Assembly (NCBI GenBank): GCA_964505005.1
Contig: CAZDFQ010000002.1
Location: 92,310 to 156,309 of the forward strand
Reading direction: 5' to 3'
Origin: an uncultured Candidatus Saccharibacteria bacterium
GTDB taxonomy: Bacteria; Patescibacteriota; Minisyncoccia; UBA6257; 2-01-FULL-56-20
Length of the DNA stretch: 64,000 nt
The notes under the pieces are model-generated. The model saw nothing but the letters and a program-made list of their open reading frames with translations. It searched no databases and was not told where the DNA came from. The position numbers and the translations under genes are program-made. Numbering within the stretch: the stretch's first letter is position 1; each line of letters begins with the position of its first letter. Positions 6,257 to 57,412 of this stretch are shown in pieces.

Positions 6257-6452
6257 GCCGGCCACAGGCAATCAGGCGTCTCGCCAGATGTTGTTTCAGA
6301 CGACTGGCGAGGCGCCATCTCTTTTATTGTTGCCAGAAAATAAAATTTGGTATAAGCTTCTAAACGCGATGCGAATGACGCGAATGCCATCCGAATGTCG
6401 CGAATAAAAATTTAATTCGTTCGCATTCGTAGTTATTTGTAGCATTTGTAGT

Positions 6453-6815
6453 ATGTTGACTATAAGATTACAGCGCATCGGCAAAAAACATCAGCCAAGC
6501 TACCGCCTGGTGGTGGCTGAAAAACGTTCCAAGCTCGGCGGTCCAGCCAAGGAAGATTTGGGTTTTTACAATCCTCTTCGGAAAGACGCCGGCTTTAAAG
6601 CCGAGCGGATTTTGTACTGGCTCGGCGTCGGCGCCAAGCCCTCGGCCATGGTCCACAATCTTTTGGTCAGACACAATATCCTTAAGGGACCGAAAATAAA
6701 AATTTCCATCAAGAAAAAATCGTCTTCAGAAGCAGCTCCGAAGCCGGCTGAAACCGCTGCCGAATCTTCGGTTGAAATGACGACCGAAATGTCGGCCGAC
6801 GCTTCAACTGCCTAA
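6453..6815 (+). CDS. rpsP: 30S ribosomal protein S16 with a C-terminal low-complexity extension
   Basis: MLTIRLQRIGKKHQPSYRLVVAEKRSKLGGPAKEDLGFYNP... Confidence 0.9.
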   Translation: MLTIRLQRIGKKHQPSYRLVVAEKRSKLGGPAKEDLGFYNPLRKDAGFKAERILYWLGVGAKPSAMVHNLLVRHNILKGPKIKISIKKKSSSEAAPKPAETAAESSVEMTTEMSADASTA

Positions 6816-7700: not shown

Positions 7701-8570
7701 ATGTCTAGAAACTTTCGTGAGTTACTCGAGGCGAAGTGGTCGGAAGGGAAGTTCGTTTGCGTCGGACTCGACAGCGAGTTCGGGAAGATTCCCGAATCTG
7801 CTCGCCGTCCCGGCAACGAGCGCGACATCGATGTCGCCAACACCATCGTCGAGTTCAACCGCGCCATCGTGGAAGCGACCAAGGACATCGTCTGCGCCTA
7901 CAAGCCGAACATCGCGTTTTACGAGGCGCACGGCAGCGAGGGGCTCGCGGCCTTGCACCGCACCATCGTGGACATCCACATTCTCGCGCCGGATGTGCCG
8001 GTGATTCTCGACGCCAAGCGCGCGGACATCGGCAACACCAACAATGGATATTGCCAGATGGCGTTCGAGTGGCTTGGGGCGGATGCGATCACGGTGCATC
8101 CGTACTTCGGAGCCGATGCGCTCCAGCCGTTCCTCGACCGAGCGGATAAGGGCGTTATCGTGCTCTGTCGCACGTCCAACCCGGGTGCAGGCGAGTTCCA
8201 GAATCTGTCCGTGGGCGGCGAGCCGCTCTATCGCTTCGTGGCTCGTTACGTCGCAAGCGAGTGGTGGAACAGGAACGGCAACTGCGCGGTGGTCGTCGGC
8301 GCGACTTATCCCGAGGAGCTTCGGGAAGTCCGCGGCATCGTCGGCGACCTGCCGATTCTCATTCCGGGGGTCGGCTTCCAGCAGAAGGATGTGCCTCTCG
8401 AAGAGCAGGTGCGGCAGGTCGTTTCCGCCGGCAAGGACAGCCGCGGCTGGGGGATGATTATCAATTCCTCGCGCGGCATCATCTTTGCCTCCAAGGGGCC
8501 GGACTTTGCCGAGGCAGCCCGGCGCGAGGCAGGCAAACTCCACGAGCTCATCATCCGCTGCCTTGGCTAG
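7701..8570 (+). CDS. pyrF: Orotidine 5'-phosphate decarboxylase, type 2 (long form)
   Basis: VCVGLDSEF... and DAKRADIGNT (the DxKxxDIxxT active-site motif). About 289 aa, as in type 2 ODCases. GC3 is very high compared with flanking genes. The minus-strand ORF 7722-8618 is a GC shadow ORF. Confidence 0.8.
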   Translation: MSRNFRELLEAKWSEGKFVCVGLDSEFGKIPESARRPGNERDIDVANTIVEFNRAIVEATKDIVCAYKPNIAFYEAHGSEGLAALHRTIVDIHILAPDVPVILDAKRADIGNTNNGYCQMAFEWLGADAITVHPYFGADALQPFLDRADKGVIVLCRTSNPGAGEFQNLSVGGEPLYRFVARYVASEWWNRNGNCAVVVGATYPEELREVRGIVGDLPILIPGVGFQQKDVPLEEQVRQVVSAGKDSRGWGMIINSSRGIIFASKGPDFAEAARREAGKLHELIIRCLG

Positions 8571-8603
8571 CCGGAGCCAAGGCATAGGATGGTAGAAAAG
8601 CGA

Positions 8604-8645
8604 GGGGTCGTTGCTCAAAAGGCAACGACCCCTTTGAAATTTTAT
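8604..8645 (+). terminator. Rho-independent terminator after pyrF
   Basis: ggggtcgttgc-tcaaaag-gcaacgacccc followed by tttgaaatttta. Confidence 0.5.
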
Positions 8646-11093: not shown

Positions 11094-11489
11094 TTATCTT
11101 ACTCTGGTTTTCTTATCCAAACGTTTAGCTTGATGCCCCGCCGGCGCGTTATTCTCGTTTTGGTGGGCAGGCAGGGCCGCCAAGTCCGCTGGCGTTCGTA
11201 AATCGTTTTTTCGGCAATAAAACGCCTCGGCGTCCGGAAAGCAGTTTTGCCCCTTTTGGTTCGTCTGGAAGAATAGTTTTTCATCGTTAAAGTAATTTTA
11301 TCAATTCTTCAGGTGACTACAAAATTTAGGGGTAAATTATTTTACCTTTCTTTATTTTTAGAAAAGGCGTCGGTTTATCGAATGGGCGTTGCCGCAGTAG
11401 CGGCAACGCCCTTCTTGCTTTTCAAGTTGTCTAAATCCGCTTTTTTTGTTACATTACGAAAACAGAGTTTTTACAATCCGCCAGCTGAA

Positions 11490-12833
11490 ATGGTTCTCAG
11501 TAAAAGAAAAAATTTAGACAAAAAAGCTCGTGTATTCGTGGCAATGTCCGGCGGCGTGGATTCGTCGGTCGCGGCTTGGCTGTTGCAAAAGCAGGGTTAT
11601 GATGTTATCGGCGTTTTTATGAAATGTGTCGGCCCCTCGACGGGGTTCGGGGTAGACTGTGCCGAGAGCGATGCCGAGGATGCCCGCCGGGTTGCTGAAA
11701 AATTAAGTATTCCTTTTTATGTTTGGGATTTTGAAGAGGAATACAAGCGCCGGGTGATGGATTATATGATTGACGGCTACCGGCAAGGGCTGACGCCGAA
11801 TCCGGATGTGATGTGTAACCGCGAAATTAAATTTGGGCTTTTTTTGGAGAGAGCGCTCGAAATGGGGGCGGATTATGTGGCAACAGGGCACTATGTGCGG
11901 AAACTTTGTTTTGCGAGAACCGGCGTCGCTCCGACTCCGGCGGTCGGAGCGCGCCTGCATCTCGGTTCTGCGGCTCGCTTACGGCGAGACCAAGCCCGCA
12001 GAACCTCCGATAGCTTCTCGCAAAACAAAGTTTCCTTTGGATTGGGTATTGCAAGGGATTTGAATAAGGACCAATCCTACTTCCTCTGGACTCTGAATCA
12101 GGAGCAGTTGAAGCCCTGCCTTTTTCCAATTGGCGATTATCTTAAATCCGAAGTTCGGGAAATCGCCCGTCAAGCCGGTTTGCCGACCGCCGACAAAAAG
12201 GATTCCCAGGGTATTTGTTTTTTGGGTAAGGTAACGCTTGATGAGTTTCTGAAGCAATATATTCCGGCGCGGCGCGGGGCGGTTTTAACGACTACCGGCC
12301 AGGAAATCGGCGAACATCAGGGTGCCCAGTTTTATACAATCGGACAAAGGCATATTTCGATCGCGAATCGCCAAGGGCAAATCGCCAATAGTCAGCCGCT
12401 CTATGTTGCCGAAAAAGATGTTGCAGCTAATATGCTGGTAGTCGCCGAAGGCGAGGACAATCCGATGCTCTATAAAGAGGAAGTTGAATTAAAGGATGTC
12501 AATTTTATCAGCCCAGAACATTCTAACATTCTGCAGAATGTTAGAATGTCAGTATCGGCTCGAGTTCGTTATCGCCAACCGTTGGTACCGGCAATCCTCT
12601 ATAAGCTAAAAGCTAAAAGCTATAAACTCGTTTTTGACCAGCCGGTCAAATTCGTGGCCCCGGGTCAGTCCGCGGTGTTTTACAAAAAGGGACAAGGGAC
12701 AAGGGACCCCGCACCAAAGCCCCGAAGGAGAACAAGTTCCCTACGGGGCAGGCAAGCTTGGTACGGGGCAGGCAAGAGAGAGGGAGAGTTCGAGCTGCTG
12801 GGCGGCGGAATAATAAAAACTGTTATGCTATAG
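11490..12833 (+). CDS. mnmA: tRNA-specific 2-thiouridylase MnmA, enlarged by two in-frame repeat insertions
   Basis: VFVAMSGGVDSSVAAWLL (PP-loop), ATGHYVR, NKDQSYFLW, KKDSQGICFLG and ELLGGGII. About 447 aa from the ATG at 11490, versus about 360 aa for the canonical protein. Upstream hairpin gggcgttgccgc-agta-gcggcaacgccc plus a U-run at 11384-11420. Confidence 0.85.
   Translation: MVLSKRKNLDKKARVFVAMSGGVDSSVAAWLLQKQGYDVIGVFMKCVGPSTGFGVDCAESDAEDARRVAEKLSIPFYVWDFEEEYKRRVMDYMIDGYRQGLTPNPDVMCNREIKFGLFLERALEMGADYVATGHYVRKLCFARTGVAPTPAVGARLHLGSAARLRRDQARRTSDSFSQNKVSFGLGIARDLNKDQSYFLWTLNQEQLKPCLFPIGDYLKSEVREIARQAGLPTADKKDSQGICFLGKVTLDEFLKQYIPARRGAVLTTTGQEIGEHQGAQFYTIGQRHISIANRQGQIANSQPLYVAEKDVAANMLVVAEGEDNPMLYKEEVELKDVNFISPEHSNILQNVRMSVSARVRYRQPLVPAILYKLKAKSYKLVFDQPVKFVAPGQSAVFYKKGQGTRDPAPKPRRRTSSLRGRQAWYGAGKREGEFELLGGGIIKTVML
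11899..12035. repeat. 137-bp palindromic element with perfect 21-bp terminal inverted repeats, inserted in-frame in mnmA
   Basis: Left IR ggaaactttgttttgcgagaa (11899-11919) is the exact reverse complement of the right IR ttctcgcaaaacaaagtttcc (12015-12035). The interior carries nested palindromes such as cgctccgac...gtcggagcg. It encodes a ~45-aa extra block between ATGHYVRK and GLGIARDLNKDQSYFL. Confidence 0.7.
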
Positions 12834-19701: not shown

Positions 19702-19932
19702 GAGATGTGAACGTTGCTCATGTTTTCCCGCCAGCAGTTTGTCCGAAAATACGCTATCAATTTCCCCGGCGAGGAATTTGCGTTCGCTTCCCGCCCGCCT
19801 GAGTTGCTCTCCCTGCCCGCCCCGCGTTGCGGAGCAAGGCAGGCGGGAGGCAAGTCGGGCGCGGTCGGCCCGCGCGAGGGTTTTCTTAACAAGCCGTTGG
19901 CGACCGAGATAAAATCTATTAGGACTTCAAAA

Positions 19933-23060: not shown

Positions 23061-24137
23061 TTGCCACCTCGGATTTACATGAAGAACACGATAGGAATAA
23101 AAAACCCCTTTGGCGCGCTAAGACGTGCAATCGTTGGGATTGTCGATGGCGCCGCCGTACCGACTCTTCATAAAGCGATGATTCCGACTTTACCCCAGAA
23201 ATATCTGTATTTTTTTAAGCAGAATGCAGGCAAGCCATTCCCCGAAAAATATGTTGAAGAAGCAAAAAAAGAACTCGAAAATTTTGTCGGGATTTTAGAG
23301 GGAGAGGACGTGATCGTAGATAGGCCTGACAAGATTGATTTCTCGAAACCCTTTATAACTCCGCATTGGTCGGAGCCAAGCGGGCTGTATGCCGCTATGC
23401 CTCGGGATATACTGCTTGTTGTAAAGAATAAAATTATCGTTGCGCCTATGTCTTGGAGGTGTCGCTACAGAGAAATCGAAGCATATCTCGATTTACTGAC
23501 GCGGTATAAAGAATTCGGGTACGAAATTGTTATCGCCCCCAGACCGGAATTAAAAGACGATTTATATGAACCGGTTGCGGGCGACATCGGAGATACATTT
23601 GAGCCGGTACTCAACGGAAGCGAACCGGTATTTGATGCGGCGGATTTTATTGTGTTAGATAAAATAATAATAGGCCAGAAAAGTCTTGTTACTAACGATG
23701 CTGGGATTAACTGGTTAAAGAGAGAAGTCAGCAATGATTTCAAAATATATATACTGAAATTTAACGACCCCCATCCAATGCATATCGATGCCACATTTCT
23801 GCCGTTGCGGGAAGGCCTTATTCTTATAAATCCTGAGCGAGTGGACGCCGAAACAGTACGTGCTCAACTGCCAACAGAAATAAAATCGTGGGAATTTGTA
23901 GAGGCTCCTTTTCCTGTCATGAAGAGTGATTCCCCGCCGAGGTTTTTTAGCAGCGACTGGTTAAATATGAACATTCTAATGCTGAATTTAAGCATGGCCA
24001 TAGTTGAGGAGAATCAAACGCCCCTGATTACGTTACTCGGGGAGCGCGGTATCAAAGCGATTAGTTGTCCTTTTCAATACTTTCAATGCTTTGGGGGGTC
24101 GTTTCACTGTGCTGTGGTTGAAACTAGCCGGCTATGA
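23061..24137 (+). CDS. Amidinotransferase/DDAH/arginine-deiminase superfamily enzyme (C-terminal GGxxHC catalytic motif)
   Basis: The C-terminus ...CFGGSFHCAVVETSR matches the GGGxHC catalytic-Cys motif of the GME/pentein fold. Confidence 0.45.
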   Translation: MPPRIYMKNTIGIKNPFGALRRAIVGIVDGAAVPTLHKAMIPTLPQKYLYFFKQNAGKPFPEKYVEEAKKELENFVGILEGEDVIVDRPDKIDFSKPFITPHWSEPSGLYAAMPRDILLVVKNKIIVAPMSWRCRYREIEAYLDLLTRYKEFGYEIVIAPRPELKDDLYEPVAGDIGDTFEPVLNGSEPVFDAADFIVLDKIIIGQKSLVTNDAGINWLKREVSNDFKIYILKFNDPHPMHIDATFLPLREGLILINPERVDAETVRAQLPTEIKSWEFVEAPFPVMKSDSPPRFFSSDWLNMNILMLNLSMAIVEENQTPLITLLGERGIKAISCPFQYFQCFGGSFHCAVVETSRL

Positions 24138-25468
24138 AGTTTCTAATCCGCGGCGGCCAGAAATTGAGCGGCGAAATCAACGTCAGCGGCGCCAAAAATT
24201 CCGTGCTCAAAGGAATGGCTGCCTCGGTTTTGTCAGCCAAGCCGGTTATCCTGGACAATGTGCCCTTAATTGAGGACGTTTTCCGGATGCGGGAATTACT
24301 GGAGCATCTCGGCGCTGAAGTGGCCATACCTGCCGGTAGACAGGGAGAAGGCGGCCCGCTTCGCCCGCCCGCTCCGACTCGGAATCGAGGCGAGCGAAGC
24401 GAGGCGAGCCGAACGCTTCGAATCAATCCCTCTTCAATCAAAAAAACCGAACTTAAAAACGAGATTGCTGAACGGCTCCGGGCTTCGATTGTTCTGGCTG
24501 GCCCGGTGCTCGCCCGTTTGGGAAAAGTAAGTTTTCCTCACCCGGGCGGCTGCGTTATCGGCAAAAGACCAATTGATGTTTTTTTGGCTGGCTGGCAGGC
24601 CATGGGCGCTAAGGTCCGGGAAAGCCAAGCTGGTTTTCTGGTTTCGGCCCGAAAATTAAAAGGCAAGGATTTTACTTTCCGCCTGGTCAGCGTTACCGGC
24701 ACGGAAACTTTGATGTTGACCGCGGCTTTGGCCTATGGCAAAACTGTTTTGCGGAATGCCGCGATGGAGCCCGAAATCCCTCACTTGGCGGAATTTCTTA
24801 ACGACTCCGGCGTGAAAATCTCCGGGGCCGGCACCCCGACCATTGAAATTATCGGCAGTAATGGCCGCCTGCTCCATCCCAAAAGTCCTTTTCAAGTCCT
24901 TAGTGACCGGATTGAAGCCGGCAGTTTTCTGATTCTGGGCGCGGCTTTGGGAAGAAAACTGAAAGTAGTTAACTGCATCCCGGAACATCTGACGGCTTTA
25001 ATCGCCGCGCTGCAGGAAGCTGGTGTCGGACTGGAGATTGGTCAGGACTGGATTTCTGTCAGTCAGCCGCGAAAATTAAAAGCCGTGGATGTCCGGACTC
25101 ATGAATACCCCGGCTTCCCAACTGACCTTCAGGCGCCTTGGGCGGTGCTGATGACTCAAGCCCAGGGAGACAGCTTGATTTTCGAAACGATTTTTGAAGG
25201 CCGATTTTCTTACATCGAAGAACTAAAGAGAATGGGCGCGAAAATTTTGACGCTTGACGAGCACCGCATTTTGGTCAAAGGCCCGGCTCATCTTCGCGGC
25301 CGGGAAATTGAAAGCCCGGACTTGCGGGCTGGCTTGGCTTTTGTCATTGCGGCTTTGCTCGCCAAAGGAGAATCAGTAATCAACAACATTTATCAAATCG
25401 ACCGCGGCTACGAAAAAATCGACGAGCGGCTGAAAAATTTAGGCGCGGACATTTCTCGTCTCAGCTGA
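24134..25468 (+). CDS. murA: UDP-N-acetylglucosamine 1-carboxyvinyltransferase MurA, carrying an in-frame ~28-aa repeat-derived insertion
   Basis: MKFLIRGGQKLSGEINVSGAKNSVLK...FPHPGGCVIGKRPIDVFL (catalytic Cys loop) ...LRAGLAFVIAAL. Confidence 0.85.
   Translation: MKFLIRGGQKLSGEINVSGAKNSVLKGMAASVLSAKPVILDNVPLIEDVFRMRELLEHLGAEVAIPAGRQGEGGPLRPPAPTRNRGERSEASRTLRINPSSIKKTELKNEIAERLRASIVLAGPVLARLGKVSFPHPGGCVIGKRPIDVFLAGWQAMGAKVRESQAGFLVSARKLKGKDFTFRLVSVTGTETLMLTAALAYGKTVLRNAAMEPEIPHLAEFLNDSGVKISGAGTPTIEIIGSNGRLLHPKSPFQVLSDRIEAGSFLILGAALGRKLKVVNCIPEHLTALIAALQEAGVGLEIGQDWISVSQPRKLKAVDVRTHEYPGFPTDLQAPWAVLMTQAQGDSLIFETIFEGRFSYIEELKRMGAKILTLDEHRILVKGPAHLRGREIESPDLRAGLAFVIAALLAKGESVINNIYQIDRGYEKIDERLKNLGADISRLS
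24341..24425. repeat. GC-rich palindromic insertion inside murA, encoding QGEGGPLRPPAPTRNRGERSEASRTLRI
   Basis: cgcttcgcccgcccgctccgactcggaatcgaggcgagcgaagcg forms a stem (cgcttcgc/gcgaagcg). It shares cgcccgcccgc with the 50613 element family and cgctccgactc with the mnmA insert. MurA homologs have about 20 residues here; this one has about 50. Confidence 0.55.
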
Positions 25469-26642: not shown

Positions 26643-26757
26643 AATCTTAAATCCAAAGCTTAAATGTCAAATCAAATCCAAAATCCCAATGACAAAAAAT
26701 TTGGATTTTGGGCTTGAGGCTTGATTTGAAATTTGGATTTTGATATTCGGATTTTCA
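26643..26757. repeat. AT-rich nested-palindrome MITE-like element (aaatccaaa / tttggattt family), copy 1
   Basis: About 85% identical to 34322-34435. Internal dyads ccaaaatcccaa...tttggattttggg. Confidence 0.6.
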
Positions 26758-28180: not shown

Positions 28181-28297
28181 GAATCTCTAATTTCTAAATC
28201 CTAATTTCTAAACAATTTCAAATATCAAAATTCAAAATGGTTTGAGATTTGATATTTGGATTTGTTTAGGATTTAGAGATTAGGATTTAGGATTTTT
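28181..28297. repeat. AT-rich nested palindrome (taggattt/aaatccta family): outer arms aatctctaatttctaaatcctaatttctaaacaa / ttgtttaggatttagagattaggatttaggatt and an inner dyad caaatatcaaa/tttgatatttg
   Basis: Reverse complementarity of the arms seen directly. Related shorter copies at 32095-32160, 32525-32610 and 43715-43745. Confidence 0.55.
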
Positions 28298-29477: not shown

Positions 29478-30230
29478 ATGATTGAAGAGCCGAGAATTAT
29501 TTATGAAGACAAGAATTTCGTGGCCGCGGCCAAGCCGGCTGGCCTGCTTACCCACCCGCTAAAAGATAAAAACTATAAGCTAAAAGCCGAGGAGTACACC
29601 TTGACCGATTGGCTTGTTCGAAAATATCCGGAGATGAAGACCGTCGGCGATGCTCCGGAAACCTGCCCGACTTCGCATGGACGAAGTCCAGGCGGGCGGG
29701 TCCGCCCCGGCATTGTTCACCGCTTGGATAAAGATACTTCAGGTATTTTACTGGCCGCGAGAAACCAAAAATATTTTAAATATCTGAAGTCGCTTTTTAA
29801 GAATCGCCAGATTAAAAAAACTTATCTGGCGGTTGTTTTCGGCCGATTAAGAGATAAAGAGGGAACAATCGCCAAAGCAGTTAAAATCAAGAAAGGCACC
29901 GTCAAAAGAACGGTTTTCAGGGGCAAAATGGCCAAAGAAGCCCTGACGCATTACCGAGTGAAAAAGGTTTTCAAGATAGGAGGCGAAGAATTTTCTTTTT
30001 TGGAAATCGTTCCGGAAACCGGCCGGACGCATCAAATAAGAGTCCATCTTGCTTCAATCGGGCACCCGATTGTGGGCGACCGAATTTACGGCTTCAAAAA
30101 AACAGCCGCTACCCGATACCCGCTACCCGATACCCGATTGATGCTCCACGCCTATTCGCTGGAATTTTCCACCGAAGAGGGAAAGAGGATTAAACTGGAA
30201 GCCGAACCGCCTGACACAATGATGATATAA
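29478..30230 (+). CDS. RluA-family pseudouridine synthase, with a short tandem-repeat-encoded insertion
   Basis: GIVHRLDKDTSGILLAAR (the HRLD catalytic motif). Confidence 0.8.
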   Translation: MIEEPRIIYEDKNFVAAAKPAGLLTHPLKDKNYKLKAEEYTLTDWLVRKYPEMKTVGDAPETCPTSHGRSPGGRVRPGIVHRLDKDTSGILLAARNQKYFKYLKSLFKNRQIKKTYLAVVFGRLRDKEGTIAKAVKIKKGTVKRTVFRGKMAKEALTHYRVKKVFKIGGEEFSFLEIVPETGRTHQIRVHLASIGHPIVGDRIYGFKKTAATRYPLPDTRLMLHAYSLEFSTEEGKRIKLEAEPPDTMMI

Positions 30231-37994: not shown

Positions 37995-38057
37995 TTTAGA
38001 ATCTAGAATTTAGAAAGTAGAATTTAGGAGCAATTTTGTTATTATTTAGGATAGGGT

Positions 38058-38495
38058 ATGAATATTCTACTTTCTACTTTCTATTTTCTACCTTCTCGTA
38101 AGGGGCAGACCGCTCTTTCCCTGGTTTTCCTGATAGGCATAGTTATAGTTTCTATAGGAGCGACAATCGCATTTTTATCCTCGAGTTTTTTGAGTTCGGG
38201 CTACGGATTTCAGGCGGCCAACCGGGCCTTAGCCATTGCGACCGCCGGAGTCGAGGACGGCTTGGTAAAATTAATTCGGAACAAAGATTTTTCAGCCGGA
38301 ACGCCTTATTCCGTTCCCGTTGACAATGATTCAGCGACCGTTACAGTCACTCAGAACTCTCCCGTTGCCGGCCAAGCAACCATTATTTCTTCCGGGACAG
38401 CCCTCTTCCGTCAGAGAAAAATTCAGGTTATTGTGGCGATAAACAGCACCACCAGCGAAGTCAGCGTTATTTCCTGGCAGCTTCTGACCCTATAA
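38058..38495 (+). CDS. Pseudopilin-like protein; its 5' end carries the same heptamer repeat as 36337
   Basis: MNILLSTFYFLPSRKG|QTALSLVFLIGIVIVSIGATIAF. Confidence 0.45.
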   Translation: MNILLSTFYFLPSRKGQTALSLVFLIGIVIVSIGATIAFLSSSFLSSGYGFQAANRALAIATAGVEDGLVKLIRNKDFSAGTPYSVPVDNDSATVTVTQNSPVAGQATIISSGTALFRQRKIQVIVAINSTTSEVSVISWQLLTL

Positions 38496-40277: not shown

Positions 40278-40970
40278 TTAGGATTGTTTGGGTTGCTTAT
40301 AAAATTTCTTCCCAATCTCTTCAAACGCCTGAGCAAGAGTCTTTTTATCCCGACTGTTGATTTTTTTAAGCACAAATTCGCCCGCTTTCATTCTGAAAGC
40401 CGCTGATTCACGCAGATTTTTACGCTGATTTATGCTGATATTATCCGCGTTTATCTGCGTTTCTAATCCGCGTTTATCGGCGTTCCGGCGGATACCTATC
40501 CGCAGTCGCCAGAAATTTTTCGTTTTAAGTTTCCGAATGACCGATTCTACTCCTTGATGTCCTGCCGAGCTCCGGCCGAAGGAAATCTTATATTTGCCTA
40601 ATTCGATATCTGAGTCGTCATGAACTATTAAAACTTCTTGCGGCTGGAGGTGATATTTTTTTAAAGTTTTGTCAACAAAATTTCCCGATTCATTCATATG
40701 GGTTCCGGCTTTTAGCAGTTTAAATTTATGAAATTTCGTTTCCTCAATTAGTTCGCCCCGCCCGCCTGAGTTGCTCAGGCAAGTCGGGCGGGTCGTCGAA
40801 AACAAACTGGTGTTTGCTTTCTTCTCGCTGCCGATTGGAAAATTTAAGAGAGGATTTTTACTTAGATAATCGACAGCCAAAAACCCAACATTATGGTAGG
40901 TGCCTTCGTACCTTTTTCCAGGATTGCCCAGGCCAATGATGATTTTAATTTTAGAAAGCTCCTTAAACAT
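40278..40970 (-). CDS. pth: Peptidyl-tRNA hydrolase, carrying an in-frame repeat-element insertion
   Basis: IIIGLGNPGKRYEGTYHNVGFLAVDYL...KFKLLKAGTHMNESGNFV...LIVHDDSDIELGKYKISFGRSSAGHQGVESVI. 230 aa versus about 190 aa for the canonical protein. Confidence 0.8.
   Translation of the reverse strand: MFKELSKIKIIIGLGNPGKRYEGTYHNVGFLAVDYLSKNPLLNFPIGSEKKANTSLFSTTRPTCLSNSGGRGELIEETKFHKFKLLKAGTHMNESGNFVDKTLKKYHLQPQEVLIVHDDSDIELGKYKISFGRSSAGHQGVESVIRKLKTKNFWRLRIGIRRNADKRGLETQINADNISINQRKNLRESAAFRMKAGEFVLKKINSRDKKTLAQAFEEIGKKFYKQPKQS
40745..40840. repeat. Copy of the cccgcccgcctgagttgctcaggcaagtcgggcggg-core element, inserted in-frame in pth
   Basis: About 85% identical over ~95 bp to the intergenic copy at 50613-50730, including the ...tttgctttcttctcgctgccgattgg right arm. 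Confidence 0.7.
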
Positions 40971-41189
40971 GATGTCAATCTGCGGATGAAATGCGAATTA
41001 GGCGAATCAGGAGGCTAAGTGAACATAATTTACATTCGCAGTATTCGCACAAAGATTCGCATCATTCGCATTATGTCAAGCGGCTCGACCGATGCGAATG
41101 ACCCGAATTATACACGAATGACACGAATAGATTAAAAATGTGATACAGCCCTTGAATTCTCTATTTCTATACTATACAATACCCCATTA

Positions 41190-43110: not shown

Positions 43111-43289
43111 AAATAGCCCCCTAAATCAATTTATATTCGCAGCATTCGCATCTATTCGCCCGCCCGCCTGAGTTGCTCAGGCAAGTCGGGCAGGTAGATT
43201 CGCATTATATTCAAGCCGCTTGACATAATGCGAATGATGCGAATCATATGCGAATGTCGCGAAAAACCGGATTATGATAGATTAAAATT

Positions 43290-46275: not shown

Positions 46276-46417
46276 ATGAAATCCTGAAATGGGGTATATA
46301 AATTCGTAGCATTCGCATCCATTCGCAGATTAGCATTATATTCAAGCCGCTTAACCATAATGCGAATGACCCGAATTATATATGCGAATGATGCGAAAAA
46401 TAATTAAGATTAAGATT

Positions 46418-49544: not shown

Positions 49545-50594
49545 TTATTCCTCGTTTTCCTGCGGCCGCTCCAGCGTTAGCGGCTCCGCGCCGATGGCTT
49601 CGCCGGTGATTTTCAAAATGTCCTTATCGATTTTGGAAAATTCTTTGTAGGCCGTGTTGTAGCTGGAAACGGTTTGACCGAGATTTTTGCCGACTTTGAG
49701 CAGAAAGTCGTCGAATTTCGAAAGATGGGTGGTCAGTTTTTCGATTTCTTTTTTTATCTCTTCGGTTGATTCCTGAATTTTGAACGCTCGCAAGGCCTGG
49801 AAAAGAACCTGTAGGTAAGCGGCAAAGGTCGTCGGCGAAACGATAATCACATGTTTTTCATTATAGGCGTAATCAACTAGGTCGCGGGTACTGGATTTGA
49901 CCGCGCCGACTTGATTGACGAGTAGGTCGTAATAAATCGCTTCCGAGGGAATGAACATAAAAGCGAGGTTCACGGTCCCTTCCTCGGGCTTGATGTATTT
50001 GGCGGTTTCGTCGATTCTTGATTTTAAGTCAGCCACGAATTGTTTTTCCAACCGCTCGCGGACTCCGGCATCTGCTTCGTTTATCAAGCGGTTGTAATTT
50101 TCCAAACTGAATTTGGAGTCAATCGGCACGATTTGGTTGCCGATGAAAATCACCGCATCCACCACCGTGCCGTCTTTGAAAGGATATTGCATTTGATAAC
50201 TCGATGGCGGGAGAACATTTCGGAGAATCGTTTCCAGATAATATTCGCCAAGTACACCTCGCTGTTTCGGGTTTTTCAGAATGTCCTGAAGCGTACGCAA
50301 CTGCTCGGTGATGTTCATTACCTGTTTCTGACCTTCGCCGACCTTAGTCAACTCCTGGGTAATTTCTTTGATGATTTTCGCACTCTCGCCGAATTGCTCG
50401 CGGAAAGCCCGGGTCGATTCGCCGAGTTTATTATCCATCGTGCGGGCCAATTCATTCAACTGGTTTTGAATGAGAAGAAGCGACTGGTCGGCCTCTTTTC
50501 TTCTGCTTTGGCTCTGGAGAATATAGAAAAGAATGCCGAAACCGGCCAAAAGTAAGAAAATTAGGATGAAAAGAAGCGTTGATTCCATATTCAT
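49545..50594 (-). CDS. rmuC: DNA recombination protein RmuC
   Basis: N-terminal TM and coiled coil, then RGVLGEYYLETIL...PIDSKFSLENY...FIPSEAIYYDL. Confidence 0.85.
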   Translation of the reverse strand: MNMESTLLFILIFLLLAGFGILFYILQSQSRRKEADQSLLLIQNQLNELARTMDNKLGESTRAFREQFGESAKIIKEITQELTKVGEGQKQVMNITEQLRTLQDILKNPKQRGVLGEYYLETILRNVLPPSSYQMQYPFKDGTVVDAVIFIGNQIVPIDSKFSLENYNRLINEADAGVRERLEKQFVADLKSRIDETAKYIKPEEGTVNLAFMFIPSEAIYYDLLVNQVGAVKSSTRDLVDYAYNEKHVIIVSPTTFAAYLQVLFQALRAFKIQESTEEIKKEIEKLTTHLSKFDDFLLKVGKNLGQTVSSYNTAYKEFSKIDKDILKITGEAIGAEPLTLERPQENEE

Positions 50595-50612
50595 TCGGAT
50601 GTGCCTATTCGT

Positions 50613-50730
50613 ATGAAGCTCCGCTTCATCAATCGGTTCGGCCCGCCCGCCTGAGTTGTTCAGGCAAGTCGGGCGGGTCGGCGAAAATAAATGCTTCGCA
50701 TTTACTTTCTCCTCGCTGCCGATTGTAAGG
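50613..50730. repeat. Full-length intergenic copy of the GC-core palindromic element (left arm atgaagctccgcttcat hairpin, core cccgcccgcctgagttgttcaggcaagtcgggcggg, right arm ...tttactttctcctcgctgccgattgtag)
   Basis: Related copies: 40745-40840 (in pth), 43160-43200 (core only), 19787-19870 (core with a nested insertion), 36199-36290 and 56233-56314 (arms without the core). Confidence 0.7.
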
Positions 50731-56231: not shown

Positions 56232-56423
56232 TATGAAGCTTCGCTTCATCATTTGGTTCACCCGGCAATCACAAGAATCTTTTTGTTCTTGAGTTGCCTC
56301 GTTGCCAAATGTAGAATTAAATATAATGCGAATGGCGCGAATTCTTATGCGAATGTTGCGAATATTTTAATAAACCCCTCTGCGGTTATTCGTATCATTC
56401 GCACACATTCGTAAATTGGCATT

Positions 56424-56945: not shown

Positions 56946-57034
56946 TAAAAAATCAAAAATCCCCGCCTGCGCCGACCCGCACTTCGCCGTTGACTTCAGC
57001 AGGGAGAGGGCTTCGGCGGGCAGGAAAAATCAAA

Positions 57035-57412
57035 ATGCAAAATTACAATTCAAAATTTAAAATTTTAATATTTTTAATTGTCATTTTAATCTTTGCATTT
57101 TTATTTTTGATTTGGCAGCGAGGTAGCGGCACGGCACCGCAGAATTTACTCGACTCTCTTGCTAAATGTCTGGCCTCGAAGGGTATAACAATGTACGGCG
57201 CCTATTGGTGCCCGCATTGCCAGAACGAGAAAGCAGCTTTCGGCAGTTCGTTCAGATATATTCCCTATGTGGAGTGCGCGGAAAATCCGCAAAAATGTCT
57301 GGAGGTCGGCATCAAGGGTTATCCAACCTGGATTTTCTCGGATGGCCGGCGCTTTGAAGGCGAGCAAGGGCTTCAGCGGCTGGCGCAGGAAAGCGGCTGC
57401 CCATTGCCGTAA
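57035..57412 (+). CDS. Membrane-anchored thioredoxin-fold protein (WCPHC active site)
   Basis: TM ILIFLIVILIFAFLFLIW, then MYGAYWCPHCQNEKAAFG (CxxC). Confidence 0.7.
   Translation: MQNYNSKFKILIFLIVILIFAFLFLIWQRGSGTAPQNLLDSLAKCLASKGITMYGAYWCPHCQNEKAAFGSSFRYIPYVECAENPQKCLEVGIKGYPTWIFSDGRRFEGEQGLQRLAQESGCPLP

Follow-up and report, generated by a model that had tools for sequence, protein, structure and literature searches.

The murA gene on a metagenome-assembled Patescibacteria contig (CAZDFQ010000002.1, assembly GCA_964505005.1) is interrupted by a block rich in guanine and cytosine (GC), which raises the question of what this block is, how it came to lie within an essential gene and how the enzyme accommodates it. 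The gene was analysed within a 64,000-nt stretch of the contig (positions 92,310 to 156,309), referred to here as the window. The initial annotation had interpreted the block as a foreign, hairpin-forming insertion lying in frame in MurA, and this interpretation is confirmed by an alignment of homologs, by local GC content and by the presence of inverted arms. Based on the data presented below, we consider it likely that the core of the block represents one member of a selfish, non-autonomous family of palindromic repeats, and that it is translated as part of MurA and tolerated there.

An in-frame GC-rich block in murA

The murA open reading frame (ORF) is intact, and its product matches the Pfam family EPSP_synthase (E=5.7e-76) as well as many MurA structures in a phmmer search of the PDB (E about 1e-95). 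All of the alignments to PDB MurAs break off at about query residue 65 and resume at about residue 94, a stretch that the solved chains span with just ~4 residues. The 120 best-matching proteins from a set of 5.8 billion, the window MurA among them, were aligned with MAFFT. At the insert position 118 of these proteins are empty, one (P0011) has a 10-aa insert, and the 25-aa block (PAGRQGEGGPLRPPAPTRNRGERSE/AS) is present only in the window MurA. The nearest homologs, which where named belong to Patescibacteria, Candidatus Liptonbacteria and Giovannonibacteria, share no more than 72% identity with the window MurA, and nearly all of them have lengths of 419-421 aa compared to its 444 aa. Two of the insert-free MurAs, from contigs L052 and L054, are encoded in the same gene order as in the window (RecO - DUF11 protein - GlyRS - (x) - MurA - MreB - HolB - RRF - RseP), indicating that they are truly orthologous. 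A loop of this kind is therefore not a general property of MurA orthologs, given that the other 119 homologs and the PDB MurAs all lack a 25-codon insert. The GC content of the insert region is 0.69-0.71, compared to a window mean of 0.46, and the inserted segment itself reaches 71-74%.

The boundaries of the insert were derived by comparing its codons with those of three syntenic orthologs, L052, L053 and L054 (coordinates of all features are collected in Table 1). In the window gene, 81 nt take the place of 6 nt in the orthologs, which makes it 75 nt (25 codons) longer on balance; 54 nt of this gain constitute a repeat unit and ~21 nt lie on its 5' side. The insert proposed initially is thus real, but its size had been put at about 28 residues, more than the 25 actually gained. 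The residues TLRI, which had also been assigned to the insert, do not belong to it, and everything after 24409 is native MurA that aligns with R-M-L-Q-I-N-P of the orthologs. Directly 3' of the core the gene resumes with CGA ACG CTT CGA ATC AAT CCC, compared to AGG ATG CTT CAG ATC AAT CCC in the ortholog. The core itself is read in frame +2 in MurA, giving the peptide PLRPPAPTRNRGERSEA, and a search for inverted repeats placed its arms at 24352-24369 and 24389-24406. Within the 5' junction segment, the part GGTAGACAGG resembles GGGGACAGG of the ortholog (G-D-R) plus one base, and a BLAST search with the whole 26-nt segment returned chance matches only, with no repeat origin found for it.

Predicted consequence for the MurA protein

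Residues K21, C140, R145, D331 and R424 of the window MurA are conserved and correspond to K22, C115, R120, D305 and R397 of the Escherichia coli enzyme. An AlphaFold2 model built from a 90-sequence alignment has a mean predicted local distance difference test score (pLDDT) of 92 and a predicted template modelling score of 0.90, with pLDDT values under 50 confined to residues 69-89 and 141-143. Residues 69-89 form a coil between the strands at 62-64 and 94-98. When the model was compared with solved MurA structures using Foldseek, target-normalised template modelling scores of 0.94-0.96 were obtained, so that the fold is intact as predicted. Mapping the insert onto the structure, as the initial annotation had suggested, places it in a low-confidence surface loop at the turn of a beta-hairpin, with the remaining fold intact in the model. 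The insert is thus predicted to form a disordered excursion from an otherwise intact MurA. The 10-aa insert of P0011 is found at the same turn, which implies that this site is permissive.

Near-identical copies in other Patescibacteria genomes

Two scans were employed to look for further copies of the element. The first, which used the two arms with a free loop against one genome per GTDB species, returned 25 loci; 24 of these were set aside by label as presumed hairpins in genomes of other, typically GC-rich phyla, and the sequence of the remaining one (L010) was examined. This locus, from a metagenome-assembled genome of Candidatus Saccharibacteria, shares 55 consecutive identical bases with the MurA insert and lies in frame in a P-type ATPase gene, in the orientation opposite to that of the MurA copy. 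The second scan, with the central 22-mer against JGI metagenome contigs, also returned 25 loci, of which 19 carry the element. The other six (L032, L033, L038, L045, L048 and L049) were rejected as family members, being high-GC ABC-transporter genes with unrelated flanks. In these genes the 22-mer encodes a conserved (A)LDSESE(R) motif; judging from the sequences the match is probably a coincidence, and it is possible that the centre of the element derives from an ABC-transporter gene of this sort.

Once contigs representing the same locus in different samples were merged, ~13 independent sites with 94-100% identity remained (drawn from the window, L010, L026-L031, L035, L036, L039-L043 and L051). 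Identity to the consensus CCCGCTTCGCCCGCCCGCTCCGACTCGGAATCGAGGCGAGCGAAGCGAGGCGAG is 54/54 for the copies of the window, L010, L040 and L051, 53/54 for L027, L028/L034, L030, L036 and L041, and 51/54 for L026. Matches to Pfam in the element-bearing ORFs include P-type ATPase, the ATP synthase alpha/beta N-terminal beta-barrel, NadE (NAD synthase), LeuRS, ArgRS, LysRS, RpoD and L3, and an additional copy in the gene for ribosomal protein L21 came from a Logan assembly. The reading frame is open in all of these genes. The element therefore constitutes a multi-genome family that resides in frame in many housekeeping genes, and up to three copies per 36 kb are found on some contigs. No copies were detected in viral contigs, either with the central 22-mer or with the arms and a variable loop.

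The reading frame of the element varies between hosts, covering +1, +2, +3, -1 and -2, i.e., five of the six possible frames, and both orientations are used, which indicates that the conserved unit is DNA or RNA rather than a peptide. A search of the 5.8-billion-protein set with the joined six-frame peptides (104 aa), a short and compositionally biased query, gave 103 word-sharing candidates and one scored hit (P0121, E=1.5).

The loci that bear the element are 38-44% GC. The best named hits of the LysRS host are to Candidatus Curtissbacteria, the MurA hits place the window in a Liptonbacteria-like Parcubacteria grouping, and L010 is labelled Saccharibacteria. The element thus spans at least two classes of Patescibacteria, and probably three. 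Given that the copies are near-identical although the housekeeping proteins of their hosts have diverged strongly, we infer that the element has spread horizontally.

Insertion sites, variants and decay

One insertion site could be resolved to the base, in LysRS (L039, 1775-1855), where 16 homologs read QLS TVN and the host protein has 27 aa between QLS and TVN. This insert of 81 nt consists of the 54-mer plus an internal 27-nt tandem duplication. The 7-mers CAACTGT on its two sides are both ancestral codons, indicating that the insertion did not generate a target-site duplication. The LysRS element lies exactly at the junction of these tandem 7-mers (CAACTGT|CAACTGT), and the element in LeuRS (L028, 5142-5195) lies exactly at a similar junction (TCAAAAG x2 | TCAAAAG x2). 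These positions may reflect either a target preference or a slippage-type mechanism. Across the flanks of 12 sites, no common motif or tetranucleotide was found, and a C is present directly 3' of the core in 9 of the 12.

Two further LysRS genes provide evidence on the fate of the copies. In L055 (P0123, about 1501-2982), which is 81% identical, a 30-nt block, CCCGTCAAAGACGAGGCTCGCCAAAGGCGG, occupies the same site as the L039 element and retains the CCCG...GGCGG ends; judging from its sequence, this block probably derives from a full copy by decay and internal deletion. In L056 (P0124), which is 76% identical, the site is empty. Together these imply that copies decay by in-frame deletion, as reported for the palindromic elements of Rickettsia discussed below.

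The lengths added to host genes differ between sites: as estimated from Pfam coordinates, the ATPase gained ~54 nt, and the gain is 75 nt in MurA, 81 nt in LysRS and 120 nt in the host of a tandem pair. Each of these lengths is divisible by three, and selection against frameshifts explains this rule better than mechanism alone, given that the lengths are not the same. The tandem pair (L031, 1546-1655) comprises two 48-nt units with the arms of the MurA element and a different centre (GACTTGCGTCGACGCGGGCG), which add their 120 nt in frame to a 606-aa ORF identified by eye as PriA-like. C[A/G]ATTCAA 8-mers lie between the two units and on either side of them, so the picture at target sites is not uniform. 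The sequence of this variant indicates a modular family of elements. Additionally, core positions 13-54 are nested within an outer palindrome, GTCATTGCGA...TCGCAATGAC, at four or more loci (Table 1), forming a composite repeat of ~165-190 nt with 91-95% identity between loci. Only short ORFs run across this composite repeat, and it is probably intergenic.

MurA itself has received more than one insertion of this general kind. In P0038, another Patescibacteria MurA with the same synteny (L057, 3501-4820), an unrelated 57-nt GC-rich double hairpin, SASPPRFAWRGRGGSALGG, lies in frame at a different position. This implies that MurA has been hit repeatedly by the class of GC-rich palindromes.

Origin and maintenance of the insert

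In the reading that we favor, a short, dispersed, GC-rich palindrome has established itself in genes and intergenic regions of Patescibacteria alike, and one copy would have landed in the DNA for a surface beta-hairpin turn of MurA, where it would simply be translated as a disordered loop on an intact enzyme. We infer from this that the insert is translated and selectively near-neutral. Its persistence would be explained by the little harm that it does, as it amounts to 18 codons with stop-free frames that yield peptides rich in Arg, Ser, Ala, Gly, Pro and Glu with few hydrophobic residues.

The coding properties of the 54-mer fit this picture: all six of its frames are free of stop codons, and the six peptides are Arg-rich and 0-24% hydrophobic. 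The 54-mer also folds into a long hairpin with imperfect pairing. The folding energies as RNA are -30.6 kcal/mol (z = -3.0) for the 54-mer and -37.5 kcal/mol (z = -4.2) for its complement, and as DNA the two strands give z = -3.2 and -3.6; a 111-nt context folds at z = -1.7 only. The complement of 24355-24408 clearly folds better than the strand found in the murA mRNA, as mismatches become G.U pairs, which hints that the element has a preferred 'sense' strand. An Rfam scan of 24280-24480 gave only generic, miRNA-like hairpin hits (E>=0.16, far below gathering thresholds), with no family match for an intron, a ribozyme or another known structured RNA, and no terminator-like site was found at 24329-24409, the sequence following the stem being CCGAACGCTTCG.

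This strand-specific fold, together with the 94-100% identity of the core across very different hosts and the existence of intergenic copies, could also be taken to mean that the hairpin is kept for a function in cis, with the peptide as a passenger. It might act as a signal for mRNA stability or processing, cause ribosome pausing between folding units, or serve as a protein-binding or supercoiling site in the DNA, as proposed for repetitive extragenic palindromic (REP) sequences and bacterial interspersed mosaic elements. We consider such a function unlikely, however, as copies occur in either orientation with respect to host transcription, in a ratio of about 7 to 4, and at unrelated positions of unrelated genes, orthologs do without it and a decayed remnant is tolerated. 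Moreover, the few variable positions of the element show no compensatory changes, and it matches no known RNA family.

The source of the window is a metagenome-assembled contig of 173,629 bp, and short repeats can mislead assemblers, so that a repeat shared within the community might have been spliced into murA during assembly or binning. Such an artefact is very improbable, given that both flanks are murA in the correct register, with the insert in frame at a loop, and that independent assemblies (NCBI, JGI, ENA and Logan) have the element embedded, in frame, within other genes. The copies also carry single-nucleotide differences, an internal duplication and a decayed derivative, and 54 nt is shorter than typical reads. 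Slightly less probable still is removal of the block before the finished protein is made, through intron-like excision, translational bypassing of the type seen with mitochondrial byp elements, or processing at the protein level. Patescibacteria are unusually intron-rich (PMC13011429), and the block is a compact, stable hairpin; however, all of the ~11 copies within genes are open and stop-free despite adding 54, 75, 81 or 120 nt, an openness that excision would make unnecessary. In addition, Rfam provides no ribozyme or intron match, 18-27 aa is far below the size of an intein, and the in-frame remnant in L055 would not splice. Finally, local slippage or duplication within murA, i.e., an ordinary lineage-specific expansion, could draw on the short internal direct repeats GAATCGAGGCGAGC/GAAGCGAGGCGAGC and GCCCGCTTCG/GCCCGCTCCG and on the 10-aa insert of P0011 at the same permissive turn, but is refuted in practice by identical 54-mers in unrelated genes of other genomes and by a GC content of 74% compared to 46%.

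Several observations weigh against the interpretation of the insert as a translated and tolerated selfish repeat. Both the translation of the insert and the correctness of the assembly are read from assembled sequence. The window contains one copy only (24355-24408), and the gain in MurA is 75 nt, not 54, so that ~21 nt on the 5' side are unaccounted for by the repeat. The six open frames are not independent evidence, being largely a by-product of the 74% GC content: 22% of shuffles with the same composition are stop-free in all six frames, compared to 0.2% of 54-mers with 46% GC. All of the metagenome hits had to contain the central 22-mer, and the apparent conservation of the centre is therefore partly built in. 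With regard to mobility, no transposase was present among the 10 ORFs beside intergenic copies, which matched housekeeping families or nothing in Pfam, and no mobilising gene was found.

As for how the repeat would move, the lack of a target-site duplication at the one resolved site, together with the lack of a flanking motif, argues against a classical cut-and-paste MITE (a miniature inverted-repeat transposable element). A candidate mover would be a trans-acting enzyme of the HUH/Y1 type that recognises single-stranded hairpins, and another candidate route would be recombination, or a switch of template, at direct repeats of short length. We tentatively suggest, as an idea that we would sooner doubt than assert, that Patescibacteria harbour a horizontally spreading guild of 'frame-neutral' hairpins, characterised by lengths divisible by three (54 nt, and 48 nt in the variant), six stop-free frames, no target-site duplication, disordered peptides and a modular build in which variants exchange arms and centres. 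These features would suit survival within coding sequence where intergenic space is almost nil. Such hairpins might be moved by a hairpin-specific single-strand enzyme or by template switching, the latter in keeping with the two sites at tandem 7-mer junctions, and a by-product of their activity could be a steady supply of new surface loops on essential proteins of the Candidate Phyla Radiation (CPR).

Relation to known palindromic elements

The closest parallel is with the Rickettsia palindromic elements (RPEs; Ogata et al. 2000 Science 290:347; Ogata et al. 2002 Genome Res 12:808; reviewed in PMC10969869), which occupy in-frame positions in numerous unrelated genes and do not conflict with the folds of the proteins (PMC10969869, PMC6649704). 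Like these, the MurA element is a multi-copy palindrome that resides, in frame, within a range of unrelated housekeeping genes in a bacterium with a reduced genome, at a site that is fold-compatible as judged from the MurA model only; it likewise has non-coding copies, decays over time and has no known transposase. RPEs are about 100-150 bp long, are restricted to Rickettsia and use one conserved peptide frame per family (PMC10969869). In contrast, the MurA element is 54 nt long and very GC-rich within a lower-GC genome, uses five of six frames in both orientations and is hosted by Patescibacteria. At a third of their length, without a fixed peptide frame and in a different phylum, it is not a member of the RPE families as described.

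The defining features of MITEs are inverted repeats at the termini, duplication of the target site and a parent insertion sequence, and ERIC, Coxiella QMITE and Correia elements generate in-frame fusions (PMC10969869, PMC5896051). The MurA element resembles them in being small, non-autonomous, hairpin-forming and multi-copy, and MITEs are occasionally intragenic with open frames, but it lacks a target-site duplication at the resolved LysRS site and no parent element was found. REP sequences and REPINs, which are associated with RAYT transposases, are extragenic and have a conserved GTAG or CGTC tag (PMC3733652). They resemble the MurA element as imperfect, GC-rich palindromes 20-60 nt long that are present in multiple copies and at times form doublets, either tandem or inverted, whereas most copies of the MurA element are intragenic and the flanks of its 12 sites have no common tag. 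Palindrome-associated elements of the IS200/IS605 type recognise a fixed tetra- or pentanucleotide and integrate 3' of it. The MurA element is similarly hairpin-based and without a target-site duplication (at the LysRS site), but its 12 independent left and right flanks show no fixed target motif.

GC-rich or perfect palindromes have also invaded coding genes in other compact genomes, namely as the GC clusters and byp elements of yeast mitochondria and the palindromes of Nematomorpha mitochondria, and differ from the MurA element in being organellar. The byp elements, for which PMC6649704 cites Lang et al. 2014, are skipped by the ribosome and not translated. In Nematomorpha, the coding palindromes are long and perfect and do not form a dispersed repeat family (PMC6649704). 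Our search of the literature, which was incomplete in coverage, retrieved work on RPEs and MITEs and nothing on elements of this kind in CPR bacteria or Patescibacteria. The MurA element is thus best read as an RPE-like coding palindrome in Patescibacteria that spreads horizontally.

If confirmed, this would represent a second independent case, after Rickettsia, of selfish palindromes within the essential genes of a reduced genome, now in the CPR, which makes up a very large and almost uncultured share of bacterial diversity. It would explain many of the odd low-complexity stretches rich in Arg, Ser and Pro and many of the length outliers in CPR protein annotations. As copies are near-identical across classes, the element would allow recent exchange of DNA among CPR lineages to be traced, and it would offer a natural experiment on where essential enzymes tolerate insertions of 18-27 residues. 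A 54-nt hairpin without a target-site duplication would also be a concrete substrate in the search for a mobilising activity, a question that is shared with RPEs.

Other repeats and inserts in the window

The initial annotation had linked the MurA insert to two other elements in the window, a repeat family at about 50613 and an insert in mnmA, through shared 11-mers. These matches occur at chance level. With up to one mismatch, CGCCCGCCCGC has 4 hits in the window compared to 2.2 expected, a count equalled in 16 of 100 shuffles, and CGCTCCGACTC has 3 hits compared to 0.8 expected, equalled in 5 of 100. A second copy of the MurA element was not detected anywhere in the window with exact matching, a 26-nt probe allowing 3 mismatches, word-7 BLAST, single-sequence nhmmer or a ten-member profile hidden Markov model (HMM). 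None of these searches matched the insert in mnmA or the elements at 40727/43129/50612, and BLAST, nhmmer and the HMM gave no link to the insert in an RluD-like ORF either. By sequence, the mnmA element and the 40727/43129/50612 elements belong to families separate from that of MurA. The proposal that murA is the third essential gene hit by the same class of element consequently stands for the class, i.e., GC-rich palindromic in-frame inserts, but not for kinship of sequence.

Table 1. Coordinates of the murA insert and of other repeats and inserts. Positions refer to the window, except those given with a contig handle.
Feature	Position	Strand	Remarks
murA (UDP-N-acetylglucosamine 1-carboxyvinyltransferase), host gene	24134..25468	+	444 aa, intact ORF
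Replaced segment	24329..24409	+	81 nt (27 codons, P66-S90); 2 codons (G-D) in orthologs
5' junction segment CCTGCCGGTAGACAGGGAGAAGGCGG	24329..24354	+	26 nt; ~21 nt beyond orthologous codons
Core repeat CCCGCTTCGCCCGCCCGCTCCGACTCGGAATCGAGGCGAGCGAAGCGAGGCGAG	24355..24408	+	54 nt; 74% GC; match to family copies
Hairpin 5' arm	24355..24376	+	core positions 1-22; minimum free energy (MFE) structure, inverted repeat
Hairpin loop	24377-24379	+	MFE structure
Hairpin 3' arm	24380..24404	+	core positions 26-50; MFE structure, inverted repeat
Unpaired tail	24405-24408	+	4 nt; MFE structure
Composite-repeat loci	L029 1751-1804; L030 11465-11518; L031 4531-4584; L035 1993-2046; L043 2226-2279		
Palindromic insert in mnmA (11313..12833)	11904-12030		127 nt; perfect 16-nt terminal inverted repeats CTTTGTTTTGCGAGAA...TTCTCGCAAAACAAAG
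GC-rich in-frame hairpin CCTGCCCGACTTCGCATGGACGAAGTCCAGGCGGGCGGG... in RluD-like ORF (29478..30230)	29662-29708		
Second GC-rich hairpin family TTCGCCCGCCCGCCTGAGTTGCTCAGGCAAGTCGGGCGGG	40727-40806; 43129-43208; 50612-50691; partial 19787-19854		sequence repeats in window

The copies of the TTCGCCCGCCCGCCTGAGTTGCTCAGGCAAGTCGGGCGGG family are found in varied settings. One lies in frame within the gene for Pth, peptidyl-tRNA hydrolase (40278..40970, minus strand), to which it adds ~20 aa; another is intergenic, after HisRS and beside AT-rich ATTCGCA/TGCGAAT periodic repeats with inverted pairs nearby; a third is immediately upstream of rmuC (49545..50594, minus strand); and the partial copy is upstream of, or in the N-terminus of, a DUF11 ORF. 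The palindrome in mnmA adds ~38 residues compared to solved MnmA structures, and a second GC-rich, Arg-rich stretch of ~48 residues after residue 395 of the same protein is also unaligned to solved MnmA. The RluD-like protein has ~24 extra residues before a conserved RPGIVHRLDKDTSG motif.

The window also contains long AT-rich intergenic hairpins, at 6354-6456, 26649-26740, 28187-28290, 37998-38096 and 57025-57108, with further ones at 41028-41130, 43129-43266, 46296-46403 and 56322-56403. They are built of 7-9-nt periodic motifs (TTTAGGA, ATTCGCA/TGCGAAT, TAGAATC and CTACTTT), often lie directly after genes, and may be terminators or another class of repeat. Finally, a 298-aa ORF at 7722-8618 on the minus strand, among genes that are mostly on the plus strand, has a GC content of 0.67-0.71 over most of its length and may have been acquired horizontally.

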